Sequence record: MT968995.1
DNA: 64,000 nucleotides
Direction: 5' to 3' (one strand)
DNA from: Escherichia phage vB_EcoM_WL-3
In this document: positions 43,443-52,202 of the stretch, piece after piece
Position numbering within the stretch: the first letter of the stretch is position 1
Layout of the letters: each line of letters opens with the position of its first letter
Notes under the pieces: generated by a model
What the model saw: the letters and a program-made list of their open reading frames with translations, nothing else
Database searches by the model: none
Told to the model about the DNA's origin: nothing
Program-made: the position numbers and the translations under genes

Positions 43443-43652
43443 TTAATTTCGCAATTTATTAAGTTCTTCATAATCAATCCAGGATTCTAATCCTGATGGC
43501 AAATCAGATTCAATTTCCCACAGAAGTTCTTCAATTTTATGAAGACGATCTAATTCTTCAGCTGGAATAGTAACCATTGATGGAGCTCTTGATACACTAA
43601 TATCGTAAATCATATTTACCCCAGTTTGACCATACAATCGCCGTATTTCCAC
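43443..43652 (-). CDS. hypothetical protein (69 aa)
   Basis: ORF in track. Confidence 0.4.
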   Translation of the reverse strand: MEIRRLYGQTGVNMIYDISVSRAPSMVTIPAEELDRLHKIEELLWEIESDLPSGLESWIDYEELNKLRN

Positions 43653-43831
43653 TTAGAAATAGACTTTTCGCCGTTAGAATAATAAACTTCGAGTTTAGCA
43701 CGATTATTTTTAATTTGAATAACCTTGGCTGTCATTAAAGTTCCATACCCATAGTAAACTGCAACTTCATCACCTACATATACCGCGCTTCCGCGGTAAT
43801 CATGGATATAATCAGTTCCTTCGAGCATCAT
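43616..43831 (-). CDS. hypothetical protein (71 aa)
   Basis: ORF in track. Confidence 0.4.
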   Translation of the reverse strand: MMLEGTDYIHDYRGSAVYVGDEVAVYYGYGTLMTAKVIQIKNNRAKLEVYYSNGEKSISKWKYGDCMVKLG

Positions 43832-44335: not shown

Positions 44336-44639
44336 TTTCTTCTCGGTCAAATCGGTGTTTACAATGGCGGCATTTATAACGAAGATTATTAGTCTGCCAA
44401 TGGACCAATTGCACCTGTTCAGTTCCACACTCAGGGCAATTAGGAACGTTTTTAGAAGCTCTTTCACGTCGTTCAACCATAGCCATAATAGCATCCCATG
44501 CTGGAGGTTTAAAATCTAAATCGTCGCAGCCGTGAATCTTTCCACGCATTTCCATATCATCTTCCTCACCAGCCATAATAATTTTAATTAGACTGGAATT
44601 ACTTGAAGCTGCAATGTCTTCTAATAGACGCTTTTTCAT
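44322..44639 (-). CDS. zinc-finger-like small protein
   Basis: 105 aa with CPECG...CRHCKH. Confidence 0.45.
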
Positions 44640-45565
44640 TTCAATACCTCAATAGCATTGCGTAAACCATTTGCTTTTGCATTAAGAGCTTTTAACAATT
44701 TGGTGTGTTCTGCAATTTGGGCTTCAACTTCAATCAAACGAGCATTGAGATATTCGCGTTCTTCGCTCAGGTTATCAACCTTTTCTACTTTAGGTTCTTT
44801 TACAACTGGCTTATACGTATTAGGGTTCTTCAGTTTAATTAGAATGCGTGAGCTGTATAACATTGAACCATTATCTTCGGTTTCATCATACATTTCTACT
44901 ACGTCCATGATTTTTAACATCATGCGGAGTTTATAAGATAACGAACGAATAGTTTTGTTGTGCTTATTAATTTCTCTAGCTGTCATGGTGCCGAGATTAC
45001 GTGAGTAATAATAAGGAACCTGGATATTAATTAATACTGATGAACCACCTGGCTTGTGTGTTACTTCATCAGCAATAACCCAGTCCTTAACATGAACTGT
45101 ATTTGTACGGTCATCGCCAGCGGTAAACAGTTTGCGAGCATGCTTAAAAAGCATATTCACTTGAGTATTGAATTGACAAGCAAATTTATCAGCAAATTTA
45201 GTTTCAGGAATGGTAGATAACCAATCAGCCAAATGGGTCTTTTTAACATCGTTAATAATAGTAAATTCAACCAAATCGGTTATAGATGTCGAAGTTTTAA
45301 TGAAGCTCGGCTTCATAAAGTTTTTAATGTTATCACGAGCTACAGTAGAAGATAACATACGAGAACGTTTAAACCATTCAAGCAAATTGCCTAACGAATG
45401 AGAATAAGCGTTCTGAGTATCTTTACAGATATGATTTTCCTGGCCAACATACTGAAGGAAATCACGAAGAATATTATTGATTACTGCTCTATGTCCTATC
45501 TGATAATCACGATGTTTAGTAATAAGATTGTCAAAATAATCAATATAATGTTTACGAGTTTTCAT
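44636..45565 (-). CDS. coiled-coil-tailed protein, paralog 1 (309 aa)
   Basis: starts MKTRKHY; C-terminal heptad-rich segment; shares a FK..RKL motif with the next three ORFs. Confidence 0.5.
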   Translation of the reverse strand: MKTRKHYIDYFDNLITKHRDYQIGHRAVINNILRDFLQYVGQENHICKDTQNAYSHSLGNLLEWFKRSRMLSSTVARDNIKNFMKPSFIKTSTSITDLVEFTIINDVKKTHLADWLSTIPETKFADKFACQFNTQVNMLFKHARKLFTAGDDRTNTVHVKDWVIADEVTHKPGGSSVLINIQVPYYYSRNLGTMTAREINKHNKTIRSLSYKLRMMLKIMDVVEMYDETEDNGSMLYSSRILIKLKNPNTYKPVVKEPKVEKVDNLSEEREYLNARLIEVEAQIAEHTKLLKALNAKANGLRNAIEVLK

Positions 45566-45621
45566 ATTCTTCTCACTTGGTTAATAATTTATGCTCCAAG
45601 CCGTCCTTGGCTTAAATTACT

Positions 45622-46629
45622 TTACTTAATTAACTGTAAAGCTTGTTCCAGACGATCAAGACGATTAACAGATTCTTCCCAAATCCTTTTAGCTTGTTCA
45701 TACTCTTTGTGCGCTTTATTAGAAATTTCTAGAGCTTCCTTATACGCCTTTTCTAGTGCGATAACTTCTGGACGAATTTCTATCGGTTCAGGTGAATCGT
45801 CAAGACATTCCATTAGTTCCTCAAGGGTAGTTTCTTCTTTAGGAGTATTCACAATTTCATCACATTTTTGCTGGTAAATTTCTTTATCAGTCGGTGAGTA
45901 CGCACACTTTACTTCACGAAGACTAACTACAATTTTATATCCTTCCCAACCGCATATATTCTTAAAAGGACAAGTATGAATATTTTCTACTGTTTCCATA
46001 CAAAGTAATGCAGTCTCTAACTGACGAGTTATATCACTAGCAATTGAGAAAAATTTATTAATGTTCTTTTGATTAGCTTCTGGTGTAAAAAATCCATAAT
46101 TAATAAAAATAGCTACTTTATTTTTATCAAGCTCATATTCTTTTATTGTAATCATATCAGCAGCTAAAGGATGAATTTGACGATAATCGCCATAACATAG
46201 TTTAGAAGCCGATTTCAGAATTTGCTTTTTGAAAAGTCTAAATTTACTAACCCAACGACGAGTAAAAATATTCTCAGGGTCTTCTTTGGTATTAAGATGA
46301 TAAGAATTAACATCACCGAACCAGTTATATCCTACTACATCTTTAGTTCGTTTAATTTCTTTACCAAATTTACTAAGAATATCTCTGTTGACTAAGTATG
46401 AAAGAAGACGAGACCCTTTAAAGGTTTTCTTAATACCATCTTTATTTGTACGACTAGAAATTTCACGAACTTCATGAATAAATTTGCCGGAAGAAACAAT
46501 ACTTGCATCAATATTATTGAGCCATTGATTGATAATAGAAAGAACGCTATTTTGGCCAAACAACGGTATAGGCATAACTTTATTATCAATAACATTATTG
46601 AATGATTTGATGTATTCGTTACGAGTCAT
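45622..46629 (-). CDS. coiled-coil-tailed protein, paralog 2 (335 aa from MTRNEY)
   Basis: FRLFKKQILKSASKL is similar to ALFRKQLKQILSTASRL in paralog 3; C-terminal coiled coil. Confidence 0.5.
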   Translation of the reverse strand: MTRNEYIKSFNNVIDNKVMPIPLFGQNSVLSIINQWLNNIDASIVSSGKFIHEVREISSRTNKDGIKKTFKGSRLLSYLVNRDILSKFGKEIKRTKDVVGYNWFGDVNSYHLNTKEDPENIFTRRWVSKFRLFKKQILKSASKLCYGDYRQIHPLAADMITIKEYELDKNKVAIFINYGFFTPEANQKNINKFFSIASDITRQLETALLCMETVENIHTCPFKNICGWEGYKIVVSLREVKCAYSPTDKEIYQQKCDEIVNTPKEETTLEELMECLDDSPEPIEIRPEVIALEKAYKEALEISNKAHKEYEQAKRIWEESVNRLDRLEQALQLIK

Positions 46630-46654
46630 AATAATCTCCTCAGTAGAAAGTAAG

Positions 46655-46690
46655 AACATTATACCACATCCTTGTGGCAAAGTAAACTAG
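46655..46690 (-). promoter_or_regulatory. early promoter (GTTTACTTTGCCACAAGGATGTGGTATAAT)
   Basis: near-identical to the promoter at 2425-2460. Confidence 0.55.
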
Positions 46691-47709
46691 TTCAGTGCAT
46701 TTAGTGCATTGTTTAGTTTAGAACGTTGCTTCGTGAGATTTTTGACTTTTTCTTGAGCTTTTTCTAGCATCTTTTCAGCTTCTAGCACTTCATTAGTTGC
46801 TTTGACGAGTTCATCATCTACTGCCTTGATAGACTTCTCAATCGCATCCGCGTGCCATTTTTCAACAGGTTTAAGACTCGGATTTTCAATAGGAAGAAAA
46901 TTCACTTTATTGAATTTCCATGCATCTTTATTGCCTGAACTATACATCCAAAATTTAGAATCGTTTGATGAGTAATTAGATAAATTTAAGTTATCTTGCA
47001 CTTCTTGCTTTTTCTCTTGCGGGACTTCGTCCTTTCTCAAAAAATCGTATTTAAATGAAACGATCATATCAAGTTCATATGTTGTTGTATGTTCCCAATT
47101 TCGCTCAAAACGAGGTAAAATCTTAGAATGAACAGCGGCAACAACATCCATATACTTAAATGCTTCTGTCAACTGCGATTTAAGGCATTCGCAAATTGAA
47201 AGAGAATTTTTTGTATTAGGTTTAAAGCTAATTCGTGCAGTTCTATTATTTTCTTTTAATGGTCTTACTTCCATCTGAAGAGTATAACCATCAAATTTCA
47301 GGTTCTTTAAGTTAATGTCAGAACCTTTTAATCGACTAGCCGTCGACAAAATTTGCTTTAATTGTTTACGGAATAGAGCAATAAATCTCCATTCAATACG
47401 ATAATGATTTGGATTGAAAAATCCAGATGATAAATCGACCTTACTTTGACCAACGCCTTGAACAAATAGAGGATTTTTATAATCAATAGTTTTACAGAAA
47501 TCGGTGAGCTGCTCACGAGCAGTCATTTGTGTAATATACCCCGCTTTACTAAAATGACGTAACCATTCACTGCTATTCAGATGTTTAAAGGCGTGAATGG
47601 AACAATTAACTTTACCAAGGTCTAAATTATTTTCGCACAAAAATGTCATAGCATCACGAGTATAGCTGGCATTACGAACCATATCTTCAATTTGAGAACG
47701 AGTTTTCAT
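46687..47709 (-). CDS. coiled-coil-tailed protein, paralog 3 (340 aa)
   Basis: starts MKTRSQIEDM; C-terminal coiled coil. Confidence 0.5.
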   Translation of the reverse strand: MKTRSQIEDMVRNASYTRDAMTFLCENNLDLGKVNCSIHAFKHLNSSEWLRHFSKAGYITQMTAREQLTDFCKTIDYKNPLFVQGVGQSKVDLSSGFFNPNHYRIEWRFIALFRKQLKQILSTASRLKGSDINLKNLKFDGYTLQMEVRPLKENNRTARISFKPNTKNSLSICECLKSQLTEAFKYMDVVAAVHSKILPRFERNWEHTTTYELDMIVSFKYDFLRKDEVPQEKKQEVQDNLNLSNYSSNDSKFWMYSSGNKDAWKFNKVNFLPIENPSLKPVEKWHADAIEKSIKAVDDELVKATNEVLEAEKMLEKAQEKVKNLTKQRSKLNNALNALN

Positions 47710-47717
47710 GGTGTTCC

Positions 47718-48629
47718 TTAAGATTTAAGTAAATCAACAATTTTAATTAATTTTTCACGCTCAGATTTAGCTTTACTACTCAATCCAGATAGTCTGAAAA
47801 TTTCATCGTCATATTGTTGAATAGAAATATTCAGCTCTTCAATCTGTTTATTAAAATAATCAATTTGTTCAGAATGTTTTTCGTTACTACGAACTGGTAC
47901 AGGTTTTGTAGGCAATTTAGTTGAACTGGATTCATCCGGGCGATAAATTAAAATACAACTTGAACCAATAGGGCATTTTGCACCAGATGAATATTCTAAT
48001 GTTCCGGCTTCTTTTAAAACTTCAAAAGCTAAACAGAGATGATGCCCCATATTAACATAATCTGTAGAGTGAGCTCTGACGTAATAATCATCTCCACGAG
48101 TGCTAAATTTAAAGCATTTAAGGTCTTCTGTATTATTGGTCTTAAAAATCATTTGTTTATCTAGACCTTTAGCTAATCGAGCGCCTAATGCTAATAATCG
48201 TCTTTGATTTTCCCACAAATCCGCAATCATTTGATCGAATGATAATTTTGGCATTAGTCGACCATAAAGGTCATATCCTTTATTATAATTACGAAGGATT
48301 TCACTCGCATTAATACGAGACAATGCTCCAATTTTATTAAGGGCTTTCATAATGCGATTAGATAAACTCATTCCAGATCCGTTTGTTCGCTGCAAATGTT
48401 TTTCTAATCCAAATCCAATATCAACTTTAAACTTATCTAAAATTTCTGCATGAACATCTCTGTCAATAACATTCAAATCCAAAGTTGAGTTAAATCTATG
48501 AAAAAATTTATCTGGCTCTGCACTGCGAAATACAGTCCATTCATTCATCATTTTTTTATTAACTAAAGATTTAATTACTGCATTGACATTATTAATTACT
48601 ACTGACATATTTTCCTCACTCAATTTCAA
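47718..48629 (-). CDS. coiled-coil-tailed protein, paralog 4 (303 aa)
   Basis: C-terminal coiled coil QIDYFNKQIEELNISIQQYDDEIFRL. Confidence 0.5.
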   Translation of the reverse strand: MKLSEENMSVVINNVNAVIKSLVNKKMMNEWTVFRSAEPDKFFHRFNSTLDLNVIDRDVHAEILDKFKVDIGFGLEKHLQRTNGSGMSLSNRIMKALNKIGALSRINASEILRNYNKGYDLYGRLMPKLSFDQMIADLWENQRRLLALGARLAKGLDKQMIFKTNNTEDLKCFKFSTRGDDYYVRAHSTDYVNMGHHLCLAFEVLKEAGTLEYSSGAKCPIGSSCILIYRPDESSSTKLPTKPVPVRSNEKHSEQIDYFNKQIEELNISIQQYDDEIFRLSGLSSKAKSEREKLIKIVDLLKS

Positions 48630-49023
48630 TTTTACTAAATATACAGAATAAGATGGAACAGACTATATAAGCACCACACACAGATTGAACTAATACCATT
48701 CCAAAGAACCAAACAATATTATCAAACAATGTCTGTTTTACGTCGAAAGGACGTAAACTTACAGTAATATTATCACCTTTTTCTATTGAAGAATACATCT
48801 CTGGGGAAATATATTCACTAAATCTATAACCATCTTTGAGTTCATATACGGCAATAAACGATAAACTAGACCCTTTTCCTTGTGTTCCTGTAATGGTATT
48901 AACTACAGTAACATCATAATCTTTATAATGCATATAATCATTAATTGCGTAATAACCATATGCAATTACTACACATAAACAACATATCAATAAATTCAAT
49001 CTTTTAATTATCAACTGTTTCAT
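48616..49023 (-). CDS. membrane protein (135 aa, two hydrophobic segments)
   Basis: N- and C-terminal hydrophobic stretches. Confidence 0.5.
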   Translation of the reverse strand: MKQLIIKRLNLLICCLCVVIAYGYYAINDYMHYKDYDVTVVNTITGTQGKGSSLSFIAVYELKDGYRFSEYISPEMYSSIEKGDNITVSLRPFDVKQTLFDNIVWFFGMVLVQSVCGAYIVCSILFCIFSKIEIE

Positions 49024-49078: not shown

Positions 49079-49606
49079 TTATGCGAGTACCGTCTTTAAC
49101 CGTTCTTCAAACTTCCGAAGAGTATTTTGGCGTTCAGCTCTTTGCTTTTTGTAAGTTTCAATACGCTCTGAAATGAGAGTGTATCGTTCATTTACTGATT
49201 CTTTCATAAAATCAGGAATTTCACGAGAAGCTTTAATCTCGTCAAATTTATCAATAACAGCTTGCTCTTCAGCAATTAAGTTATCATACATTAAAATATC
49301 TTTCTTGATAAACTCAATATCTTCTTGAGTTACACGAGATAATTTAGATGCTTTATCCTTTTTGTACTGTTCGTTAGTATCACGAGACCAGTGTAATGTA
49401 CGATTTTTATTCGTATTTTTGTAAATTTCTACAATACCGATCTCATCGATAATAACGATCCAATTCCAACGGGATTTGTAAATTTGTCCTCCATCAACAG
49501 TGATTTCACCTCCGATTGAGATGTCATTAAAGAACTTGCTTTGCGCTTCAGATTTAAATTTACCATCGTTGTAATTTACTAAGTTGAAAATATCTTTAGC
49601 GTTCAT
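49079..49606 (-). CDS. hypothetical protein (175 aa)
   Basis: ORF in track. Confidence 0.5.
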   Translation of the reverse strand: MNAKDIFNLVNYNDGKFKSEAQSKFFNDISIGGEITVDGGQIYKSRWNWIVIIDEIGIVEIYKNTNKNRTLHWSRDTNEQYKKDKASKLSRVTQEDIEFIKKDILMYDNLIAEEQAVIDKFDEIKASREIPDFMKESVNERYTLISERIETYKKQRAERQNTLRKFEERLKTVLA

Positions 49607-50070: not shown

Positions 50071-51039
50071 TTATTTCAGAAGAGTAACCTCAGCAATTTC
50101 TTCCCAACCGTTTTTGTCGGTCATAATAAAGTCAGCAAGATAAAGAGCAGTACGTAGTGAAACATTGCGTAAACGATTAACATTAACTTTCATCCATGAT
50201 AATGCTTTATAAGTTTCTTCATCAGAAAGACCGCGCTTTTGCATCATGTCAGTTGAAAGAATAACATCTTCAACCCTGACCATAATTTCTTCATTAGTGT
50301 GAACACCCAAATCCAAATAAACTGAGCGGGACACTAATGCTTGTAAGTGTGGAGCAAGTTTAGTACCACGGTCTAATTCGCGGTCAATGTCAACGTTTGT
50401 GATAAAAACAATCGTTCCTTTAAATTCAAACTCACGGTCAATGCCTTTTTCTTCTAAGTAAGAAGATGCAGTGCTCCAGCAGACTTTACGGGTCTCTCCA
50501 GTGTCCAGAGCAGCTTTTAGAAGATTAAGAATGTCCATATCAGAGAAAACATCCACATCATCAATCAAAAGGACAGAATTCTCTTCACGATTATTCCAAA
50601 GCTGTTCATAAAGACCAATACCAGAGATTTTACCATTAATGCTTTTATATTCAATGTATCCATTATCATTTGCTTTATTTAAAGCTTTATCTAAAGAATA
50701 CGTTTTACCAATACCTGCTGCGCCAGAGATAATTAATGAACGAATGTTTCCGTTAATAATACCATTCGTCATCATTCCCATAACATTAAATCTTTTATTA
50801 ATGCGGGTTTTCATATCTTCATACGATTCTTTAACTTCTTCAACTTTTACACCATCATATGAAATGTCTGATTTGTAAACCCAAACACCGCGACGTTTAC
50901 CGTCAATTTCAACAAAAACTTTACCATCTCCTTGTGCATCTACTGGAGCATTATCTGGGAACCATTCGCCTAAGAGCTCAAAAGTTCCAGAGATTTCTTT
51001 ACCGAAGTAGATACCCTTATTGATAGTTACAGTTTTCAT
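50071..51039 (-). CDS. P-loop ATPase (322 aa from MKTVTINKG)
   Basis: Walker A GAAGIGKT and Walker B VLLIDDVD; the track ORF is extended upstream through the promoter repeat; T4 nrdC.10 position. Confidence 0.6.
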   Translation of the reverse strand: MKTVTINKGIYFGKEISGTFELLGEWFPDNAPVDAQGDGKVFVEIDGKRRGVWVYKSDISYDGVKVEEVKESYEDMKTRINKRFNVMGMMTNGIINGNIRSLIISGAAGIGKTYSLDKALNKANDNGYIEYKSINGKISGIGLYEQLWNNREENSVLLIDDVDVFSDMDILNLLKAALDTGETRKVCWSTASSYLEEKGIDREFEFKGTIVFITNVDIDRELDRGTKLAPHLQALVSRSVYLDLGVHTNEEIMVRVEDVILSTDMMQKRGLSDEETYKALSWMKVNVNRLRNVSLRTALYLADFIMTDKNGWEEIAEVTLLK

Positions 51040-51069
51040 TTTATTCTCCAAATCCGTATCAGTTGATAG

Positions 51070-51125
51070 TTGTATAGTACCATAAAGCTTTATGCTTGTA
51101 AACAATTTTGTGAAAAAATTTTTGA
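51070..51125 (-). promoter_or_regulatory. early promoter with UP element (GTTTACAAGCATAAAGCTTTATGGTACTAT)
   Basis: core and 5-prime UTR identical to the element at 24415-24461. Confidence 0.55.
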
Positions 51126-51127
51126 AA

Positions 51128-51154
51128 TAAAAAAAGGGAGCCCGAAGGCTCCCT
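51128..51154 (-). terminator. rho-independent terminator after the nucleotidyltransferase gene
   Basis: GGGAGCC-CGAA-GGCTCCC followed on the minus strand by UUUUUUU. Confidence 0.7.
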
Positions 51155-51155
51155 A

Positions 51156-52202
51156 TCATTTATAATAACTTCGGTGGTTTTCAAGATAAACCTGTTCGAG
51201 GAAATTATTCCAAAAGCTCATATCTACTGTTTTAGGCATACCATTCTTAGAAGCTTCAGTAGATGCTGCTTCTACTTGATCGACCACATCTTCCAAAAAC
51301 TCTTGAACTGTTTTAAATGGATGTTTACCCAACTTCACGTCGAGAATAAATGGAGCATCTTGGAGTGGATAAACCAAGTCACCAGTTTTGTAAATTTCCA
51401 ATAGTTGAAGTCCACCACGACAAGCATGACTCAGAGCTTTCCAGTCAATACCTTCATTGGCTTCGGCCTTACGAGCACGTTCACCATATTCAGCATCTAA
51501 TTTGTTCAGTGACTGCTTAAGCTCAATAAGAGAAAGCGTTGTCTGATATTTACGACCCAACACTGTGTAGAACGTTTGTGGACCTGTTTTCTCATGATTA
51601 TGGAACACCCATTCACAGAATTCGTTTTCTGGAAGACGATGCTTAATATCTTCAACTTTAGTGCGACGCTGCTTAATAGAACCATCTTCTTGGTAATCAA
51701 CCCATTGCTCAGGGATTTGATTAACTACTTTCAATACATCACGTAATGCAGCCAAACGAGAACCCTTGACACCGTATTTAGAAGCTTGCTTGCGGACATA
51801 TCCTAAATATGATTTCATGTTAGTCGTATAAAAACGAGAACGGTTGTCTTGAATAAACTTCCACACATCAGGCAAATCAGATTTAACCACTAGTTCAGGT
51901 GGAGTGTGAAGCATATCCAACGCTACAGTTTCACCATCTGCCGCTAATTTAAAGAAATACTTAAGACTGTATAGTTCATGGTCAATATCATCTTTAGTGT
52001 TTTTAGATGATGTGTTGTTAGTGTTTTTACTCATATGCTCTTTAACATTTCCGATAAGAATATCACGAGCAGGAGGAACAAAGATTTCTTTAAAATCTAC
52101 ATCAGATTCTGGAGTAGAAGTTCCATAAAGATGACTACCAAAATAAGACTTAACTACAGTTTTCATTATTAGACCTTTCATAATCTTCATTAAATTGTAC
52201 AA
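51156..52202 (-). CDS. Pol-beta-superfamily nucleotidyltransferase (348 aa)
   Basis: GS-x9-DVD motif (YFGSHLYGTSTPESDVDF) with a later acidic VALDML; T4 nrdC.11 position. Confidence 0.55.
   Translation of the reverse strand: MYNLMKIMKGLIMKTVVKSYFGSHLYGTSTPESDVDFKEIFVPPARDILIGNVKEHMSKNTNNTSSKNTKDDIDHELYSLKYFFKLAADGETVALDMLHTPPELVVKSDLPDVWKFIQDNRSRFYTTNMKSYLGYVRKQASKYGVKGSRLAALRDVLKVVNQIPEQWVDYQEDGSIKQRRTKVEDIKHRLPENEFCEWVFHNHEKTGPQTFYTVLGRKYQTTLSLIELKQSLNKLDAEYGERARKAEANEGIDWKALSHACRGGLQLLEIYKTGDLVYPLQDAPFILDVKLGKHPFKTVQEFLEDVVDQVEAASTEASKNGMPKTVDMSFWNNFLEQVYLENHRSYYK

Follow-up and report, generated by a model that had tools for sequence, protein, structure and literature searches.

Four consecutive genes on the minus strand of Escherichia phage vB_EcoM_WL-3 (MT968995.1), at positions 44636-48629 of the 64,000-nucleotide (nt) stretch analysed here (the window), raise the question of whether they are diverged members of a single family and, if so, what that family does during infection. 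A first-pass annotation, made from the sequence, had described them as tandem paralogs with MKTR-type N-termini, a conserved internal motif and heptad-rich C-terminal helices, a diversifying family that lies in an early region and suggests a host-interaction arms race. Judged by their sequences and their location between nrdC.2 and nrdC.7, the four open reading frames (ORFs) are homologues of T4 nrdC.3, nrdC.4, nrdC.5 and nrdC.6, which are known, catalogued genes that are mostly uncharacterised, except that a host-interaction role of NrdC.5 has already been published. The reading we favour, at a probability of roughly 0.6, is that they form one fast-diverging family of early, non-essential proteins whose most likely function is counter-defence by stoichiometric binding.

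The ORF list placed the genes at 44636-45565 (309 aa), 45622-46680 (352 aa from TTG), 46687-47709 (340 aa) and 47718-48629 (303 aa from TTG). In the second and fourth ORFs it is a later ATG that follows a Shine-Dalgarno sequence: at 46629, giving 335 aa that begin MTRNEY, and at 48608, giving 296 aa that begin MSVV. With these starts, and under their T4 names, the genes are:

44636-45565, minus strand: nrdC.3 homologue, 309 aa (T4 annotation; phrog_1435, E 4.5e-116; hhalign with the NrdC.4 family, 98.2%)
45622-46629, minus strand: nrdC.4 homologue, 335 aa (ATG with GAGGAG Shine-Dalgarno; phrog_1435, E 7.3e-163; AlphaFold2 pLDDT 83, pTM 0.68)
46687-47709, minus strand: nrdC.5 homologue, 340 aa (DUF7235 (PF23882), E 5.7e-126; 91% amino-acid identity with T4 NrdC.5; hhalign with the NrdC.4 family, 90.4%)
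47718-48608, minus strand: nrdC.6 homologue, 296 aa, probable distant paralog (ATG with GAGG Shine-Dalgarno; phrog_2257; AlphaFold2 pLDDT 78, pTM 0.65)

Relationships among the four proteins

The paralogy of NrdC.3, NrdC.4 and NrdC.5 is solid on the evidence of profile comparisons. Pairwise BLASTP, dropped as a sole criterion, gave scores too weak to decide: the best pair, NrdC.3-NrdC.4, reached 31.6 bits (24% identity over 276 aa), all other pairs scored 25 bits or less (NrdC.4-NrdC.5, 18.9 bits), and NrdC.6 had no match to any of the other three. By contrast, when family alignments, assembled from database homologues together with loci in other T-even genera, were compared profile against profile (hhalign), NrdC.3 and NrdC.4 matched at 98.2%, and NrdC.4 and NrdC.5 at 90.4% over 244 collinear columns. 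Cutting off the final 55 aa left values of 98.3% and 87.6%, over 150-210 collinear columns; since they persist without the tails, the similarity exceeds coiled-coil composition. NrdC.3 and NrdC.4 also fall into the same PHROG family, phrog_1435. In addition, P0230, which is all but identical to Klebsiella phage Marfa gp080, bridges NrdC.4 and NrdC.5: it matched the NrdC.4 family at 96.4-96.6% and the NrdC.5 family at 95.1% over nearly its full length (hhalign), and it carries an NrdC.5-like tail. P0230 was among just 10 matches of a combined NrdC.3 and NrdC.4 HMMER profile searched against 1.84 billion representatives. The NrdC.5 and NrdC.6 families were absent from the matches of this search, and sequence methods of this kind stop short of spanning the whole superfamily.

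NrdC.3 (MKTRKHYIDYF), NrdC.4 (MTRNEYIKSF) and NrdC.5 (MKTRSQIEDM) have an M(K)TRxxYIxxF start in common, and in alignment A1 the residues T2, R3, Y6, I7 and F10 are invariant. NrdC.6 does not have this start; thus, the MKTR-type N-terminus attributed to all four proteins holds for three of them. The conserved internal motif noticed on first reading, RWVSKFRLFKKQILKSASKL in NrdC.4 and WRFIALFRKQLKQILSTASRL in NrdC.5, is real and lies within the best-confidence block of the NrdC.4-NrdC.5 profile alignment, with diverged forms in NrdC.3 (NMLFKHARKLFTAGDDR) and NrdC.6 (NQRRLLALGARLAKGLDKQ). The motif regions are:

46180-46257, minus strand: conserved motif helix of NrdC.4, RWVSKFRLFKKQILKSASKLCYGDYR, aa 125-150 (highest-confidence columns of the NrdC.4-NrdC.5 hhalign alignment; model helices 121-132, 134-144 and 147-150)
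47311-47391, minus strand: motif in NrdC.5, WRFIALFRKQLKQILSTASRLKGSDIN, aa 107-133 (highest-confidence columns of the same alignment)
45107-45172, minus strand: diverged motif in NrdC.3, FNTQVNMLFKHARKLFTAGDDR, aa 132-153 (sequence alignment)
48153-48230, minus strand: diverged motif in NrdC.6, MIADLWENQRRLLALGARLAKGLDKQ, aa 127-152 (hhalign; model helices 124-133, 135-145 and 148-151)

In the AlphaFold2 model of NrdC.4, the helices 121-132 and 134-144 and the short helix 147-150 are followed by strands 160-164 and 171-176, helix 187-210, strands 214-223 and 229-237, a linker and the terminal helix. The NrdC.6 model has helices 124-133 and 135-145, short helix 148-151, strands 166-171 and 174-179, helix 187-200, strands 205-210 and 218-222, a linker and terminal helices. 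The common build predicted from these models would be an N-terminal helical region, an alpha/beta core (helix-helix-short helix, beta-hairpin, long helix, beta-hairpin), a poorly modelled linker and a C-terminal coiled-coil helix; the NrdC.3 homologue likewise has a helical N-terminal region, a variable central alpha/beta core and a C-terminal coiled-coil tail.

NrdC.6 is a probable member of the same family, although a much more distant one, and here the predicted structures carry most of the weight. The models of NrdC.4 and NrdC.6, made from separate alignments, have eight consecutive secondary-structure elements in identical order and at near-equal positions, and a Foldseek search of BFVD with the NrdC.4 model matched NrdC.6 of phage JS10 (E 1.3e-5, prob 1.0), at low TM-scores of 0.37/0.43. 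A merged profile of NrdC.3, NrdC.4 and NrdC.5 matched NrdC.6 at 47% (hhalign) inside the N-terminal domain, motif helix included, pairing SRLLSYLVNRDILSKFGK with GALSRINASEILRNYNKG and KKQILKSASKLCYGDYRQ with QRRLLALGARLAKGLDKQ in the register that the two models imply; this alignment is the sole sequence-level support for the link. Furthermore, QEA10564 of Enterobacter phage IME523 joins a core matched by the NrdC.4 model (Foldseek, E 4.4e-8) to a tail that matches the NrdC.6 tail at 93.8%, and in several genera nrdC.6 occupies a syntenic place in the array. It could instead be that the locus holds three paralogs and an unrelated neighbour, with NrdC.6 a separate family that has converged in size and in its coiled-coil C-terminus. 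This would fit the lack of an MKTR N-terminus, the separation of the families in PHROGs and Pfam, the restricted yield of the HMMER search and the missing pairwise or family-level signal, as hhalign of NrdC.6 against NrdC.3, NrdC.4 or NrdC.5 stays below 9%. Convergence would, however, have to account for the shared order of elements, for the agreement in register between the merged profile and the models, and for the composite IME523 protein, and we consider this alternative unlikely. The tandem paralog family of the first-pass annotation is therefore upheld for NrdC.3, NrdC.4 and NrdC.5 and is probable for NrdC.6.

The heptad-rich C-terminal helices were found in all four proteins. In the last 42 aa of each, hydrophobic residues occupy 10-11 of 12 a/d positions, a score reached by 0-32 of 2000 shuffled sequences, and the AlphaFold2 models of NrdC.4 and NrdC.6 end in long helices:

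44639-44764, minus strand: NrdC.3 heptad-rich C-terminal helix, aa 268-309 (10/12 a/d hydrophobic; 32/2000 shuffles)
45625-45771, minus strand: NrdC.4 long C-terminal helix, aa 287-335 (single 48-residue model helix, 287-334; 5/2000 shuffles)
46690-46839, minus strand: NrdC.5 heptad-rich C-terminal helix, aa 291-340 (11/12 a/d hydrophobic; 0/2000 shuffles)
47721-47882, minus strand: NrdC.6 C-terminal helical hairpin, aa 243-296 (model helices 243-272 and 278-295; 5/2000 shuffles)

The tails have their architecture in common, but their sequences are not significantly similar: tail-only hidden Markov models (HMMs), run against all 365 ORFs of the window, each detected their own gene only, and hhalign on the tails alone gave 45% at most (NrdC.3-NrdC.5). 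The view that coiled-coil and AT-rich bias alone produces the resemblance, with no true family behind it, could draw on these tail-only results, on the low BLASTP scores and on the tendency of heptad-rich tails to yield spurious matches, but it is refuted for NrdC.3, NrdC.4 and NrdC.5 by their tail-less hhalign values, the PHROG shared by NrdC.3 and NrdC.4 and the bridging P0230, while a structural search (Foldseek) finds relatives in many Straboviridae (E 1e-5 to 1e-8), and we give it practically no credence.

Two further candidates concerning the tails were discarded. A C-terminal signature, ...L..A[IL]..L[KN], seemingly shared by NrdC.3-NrdC.6 and nrdC.8, was dropped, as the tail HMMs match only their own genes. 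NrdC.8 (49079-49606, 175 aa) was rejected as a fifth member despite its heptad-rich C-terminal helix (9/12 a/d hydrophobic; 10/2000 shuffles), with hhalign values of 5% or less to all four families; unlike the four paralogs, NrdC.8 is highly conserved, being 99% identical to T4, with a ratio of nonsynonymous to synonymous substitution rates (dN/dS) of 0.04. Separately, nrdC.6 in the T4 reference (AF158101.6) has a 1-nt deletion, reading GAGCTG-ATATT where the window and UGKSEcP2 have GAGCTGAATATT (window 47830-47840). There, 16 out-of-frame residues stand in place of the final 37, which form the end of the coiled-coil tail, giving 275 aa rather than 296, and the DNA downstream of the deletion differs from the window by a single base. 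The deletion is either a mutation of the laboratory strain or a sequencing error.

Diversification of the locus

The window belongs to a Tequatrovirus (T4-like) genome, with 91-95% nucleotide identity to T4 and its relatives; the nrdC.3-nrdC.6 stretch is ~91% identical to the T4 locus, with gene order unchanged. On one side this stretch is bordered by nrdC.2, which encodes a zinc-ribbon protein; on the other lie nrdC.7 (encoding a membrane protein), nrdC.8, nrdC.9 and nrdC.10 (encoding an AAA-type ATPase). Amino-acid identity with T4 is 90% for NrdC.4, 91% for NrdC.5 and 97% for NrdC.6, whereas NrdC.3 shares only 62% (61.6%) between flanking genes that are 90-100% identical.

The early character of the region, proposed on first reading, stood. 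A promoter scan found T4-type early promoter-like sequences (GTTTAC...TGGTATAAT) upstream of nrdC.4, nrdC.7 and nrdC.8, and nrdC.5 has been called an early gene (PMC9391042). The site closest to the array is:

46658-46686, minus strand: T4-type early promoter-like site, GTTTACT...TGGTATAAT, upstream of nrdC.4 (10/12 matches, extended -10 TG; a match to the consensus alone)

The number of family members at the syntenic site varies from one to four across Straboviridae (the first-pass annotation had proposed a comparison of copy number across T-even genomes):

Tequatrovirus: four copies
Gaprivervirus VR20 and Dhakavirus IME08: three copies each (NrdC.4-, NrdC.5- and NrdC.6-like)
Mosigvirus Shf125875: three copies (NrdC.3-, NrdC.5- and NrdC.6-like)
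Acinetobacter phage Acj61: two copies in tandem, p120 (330 aa) and p121 (304 aa), which by length are the BFVD matches E5E4A1 and E5E4A2
Marfavirus and Kanagawavirus: one copy each

Marfa gp084 and IME523 QEA10567 (~256 aa), encoded upstream of the lone family member, were tested as additional members and found to be unrelated. Among phage records, nrdC.6 occurs in 741, nrdC.3 in 653, nrdC.5 in 581 and nrdC.4 in 553.

Within Tequatrovirus, nrdC.3 exists as two alleles, ~95% and ~60% identical to the window copy. Compared with T4, the window NrdC.3 has 87-90% identity in its N-terminal 75 residues and 77-100% in its tail, versus 23-57% in the central core, which closely matches the Mosigvirus type. 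The synonymous rate (dS) in this core is 1.04, against 0.07-0.32 for the other genes of the region. As read from these alignments, the central domain of nrdC.3 is a mosaic exchange module. The dN/dS values relative to T4 are 0.29 (NrdC.3), 0.15 (NrdC.4), 0.27 (NrdC.5) and 0.16 (NrdC.6), compared with 0-0.15 for most neighbours; by this measure the family evolves faster than most of its neighbours, with no gene-wide positive selection. The diversification suggested by the first-pass annotation is thus visible as modular allele exchange in the nrdC.3 core, as genes gained or lost between genera, and as sporadic frameshifts or fusions, but not as positive selection across whole genes.

A fusion is seen in P0056 (299 aa; three contigs of ~167 kb), in which the middle of NrdC.5 (...AWKFNKVN) continues into the C-terminal half of NrdC.3 (MLFKHARKLF...); it reflects a deletion in which nrdC.4 is lost and two paralogs are joined (window ~44636-47300). 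The NrdC.6 homologue of Shigella phage Sf25 (P0117, 378 aa) has an internal tandem duplication of ~82 residues, in which IRAHSTDYVNMG...FNKQIEEL occurs twice.

Several other features of the surrounding region were observed. The 56-nt spacer between nrdC.4 and nrdC.3 (45566-45621) contains a short hairpin, AAGCC-AAGGAC-GGCTT, on the transcribed strand, with GGAG directly after it; GGAG is the motif cut by the T4 RegB endoribonuclease. The small membrane protein gene nrdC.7 (48616-49023) has the highest dN/dS of the region relative to T4 (0.43, with a low dS of 0.085), and its Mosigvirus homologue lies elsewhere in the array, adjoining nrdC. The NrdC.10 homologue (50071-51159) gave weak, sub-threshold Pfam matches to the STAND/AAA NTPase families nSTAND3, AAA_16 and AAA_22 (E 1e-4 to 5e-4) around the P-loop GAAGIGKT, and its ORF can begin 37 codons before the T4 start. 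A tblastn search with T4 gene 49.3 gave no match, and the gene is missing from the window. The slot between 49.2 and nrdC (43443-43831) is occupied by two short ORFs that overlap on the minus strand, 43443-43652 (69 aa) and 43616-43831 (71 aa), and is another replaceable cassette, adjoining gp49.2.

Function and its alternatives

For one member of the family, a host interaction has been established by experiment. A T4 deletion mutant is unable to infect ECOR17, deletion of dsr1 in the host restores infection, and cloned dsr1 protects MG1655 from the mutant; plasmid-expressed nrdC.5 restores infectivity, such that T4 NrdC.5 counteracts the SIR2 NADase defence Dsr1 (Srikant, Guegler and Laub, eLife 2022, PMC9391042). 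According to a 2026 preprint (PMC12803255), the phage major capsid protein sets off the TPR sensor that Dsr1 has in common with Avs7. The nearby gp49.2 inhibits the OLD defence (PMC13096335), so the region is rich in counter-defence genes. The literature available to us gave only incidental mentions of nrdC.3, nrdC.4 and nrdC.6, and no newer names or mechanisms for NrdC.5 or anti-Dsr1 factors beyond the 2022 study. The host-interaction role read into the locus from its sequence has experimental backing for one member, T4 NrdC.5.

We propose that the phage would produce every paralog at an early stage of infection, and that each would bind directly and stoichiometrically to a different host immune protein and so neutralise it, with target specificity set by the variable central core and oligomerisation driven by the coiled-coil tail. 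NrdC.5 may bind Dsr1 directly, for example at its TPR sensor; the tails would be the oligomerising elements, and NrdC.3, NrdC.4 and NrdC.6 may also be anti-defence proteins. The copy number of one to four, the exchange of the nrdC.3 core and dN/dS values above those of most neighbours are the signatures expected of an arms race. Several observations weigh against this proposal. The link to NrdC.6 depends mainly on predicted structures with low TM-scores and on the 47% profile match, the functional evidence concerns one member of four and is genetic (plasmid complementation), the gene-wide dN/dS of all four genes is well below 1, and a shared oligomerisation code is unsupported, as the tail-only HMMs do not cross-detect other paralogs. 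There was also no PADLOC match, which is uninformative since PADLOC models defence rather than anti-defence proteins.

A different mechanism can be envisaged, enzymatic or related to host takeover, such as repair or bypass of NAD+ depletion or modification of a host factor, with the effect of NrdC.5 on Dsr1 being indirect. The genetic nature of the published result is compatible with this, NAD+ reconstitution pathways are among the known phage answers to SIR2 defences, and a partly conserved polar patch, [KR]L..GD.R, follows the motif helix. Sequence searches, however, suggest no enzyme signature in the four proteins: Pfam searches of the whole proteins and of the excised central domains gave no match besides DUF7235 (other hits were weak, sub-threshold and unrelated), and no related sequence was found among PDB structures, the matches being spurious designed repeats. 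Moreover, no polar residue is conserved in all four paralogs in the alignments inspected, the central domain, the expected place of an active site, is the least conserved part, and narrow distribution together with fast divergence is typical of binders rather than enzymes. We therefore regard such a mechanism as quite improbable. More speculative still, and in our estimate a long shot, is the idea that the core is a diverged tail-terminator- or tail-completion-like fold, acting as an early oligomeric decoy that would occupy TPR-type sensors (Dsr1, Avs-family receptors) before the late structural triggers appear, with each paralog and central-domain allele tuned to another sensor.

We found no description, in the literature available to us, of the unification of three separate Pfam/PHROG families as one structural superfamily, of the variation from one to four copies across Straboviridae, of the modular exchange of the central domain or of the resemblance to tail terminators. 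As a counter-defence gene, nrdC.5 has so far stood alone and lacked a mechanistic explanation. Should it be part of a structurally unified family, with one to four tandem copies in T4-like phages and a swappable central domain, NrdC.3, NrdC.4 and NrdC.6 would become immediate candidate inhibitors of other defence systems, there would be a rationale for mapping specificity by central-domain swaps, part of the host-range differences among near-identical therapy T-even phages would be explained, and three separate Pfam and PHROG families would merge into one clan.

Comparison with known systems

The closest known system is T4 NrdC.5 itself (DUF7235, PF23882), of which the window NrdC.5 is the orthologue, at the same genomic position and with a full-length match to the family model (420.5 bits, against a Pfam gathering threshold of 30 bits). 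NrdC.3, NrdC.4 and NrdC.6 share the NrdC.5 architecture, and NrdC.3 and NrdC.4 are demonstrably homologous to it. However, a Pfam search with these three gave no match to the DUF7235 model, and they belong to other families: PF26897 is assigned to nrdC.4 homologues (precomputed Pfam) and PF26899 to nrdC.6 homologues, alongside phrog_1435 and phrog_2257. It cannot be presumed that these three act against Dsr1.

By function, a likeness is seen in DSAD1 (DSR anti-defence 1) of SPbeta-like phages, a phage protein that counters a sirtuin defence whose sensor detects a phage structural protein, and that is described as repressing or inhibiting DSR2. DSAD1 and DSR2 may thus serve, by analogy, as a working model for NrdC.5 and Dsr1. 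The two pairs are likened by function, not by sequence or structure, and DSR2 senses the tail tube protein, whereas Dsr1 senses the capsid protein via its TPR sensor. In predicted fold, the family bears a modest resemblance to tail terminator and completion proteins (lambda gpU, SPP1 gp17-like, T5 p142, DUF3168 and the neck protein of gene transfer agents (GTA)). In genomic setting, NrdC.3-NrdC.6 resemble the small T4 counter-defence proteins gp49.2, which acts against OLD, and TifA, Dmd and AdfA, which act against toxin-antitoxin systems: all are encoded by non-essential early genes, clustered in hyperplastic regions and variable between T-even phages, and, as proposed here for the NrdC proteins, each of the others is tuned to one host defence. 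Unlike those sequence-unrelated single genes, NrdC.3-NrdC.6 are larger (~300-340 aa) and form a tandem array of paralogs.

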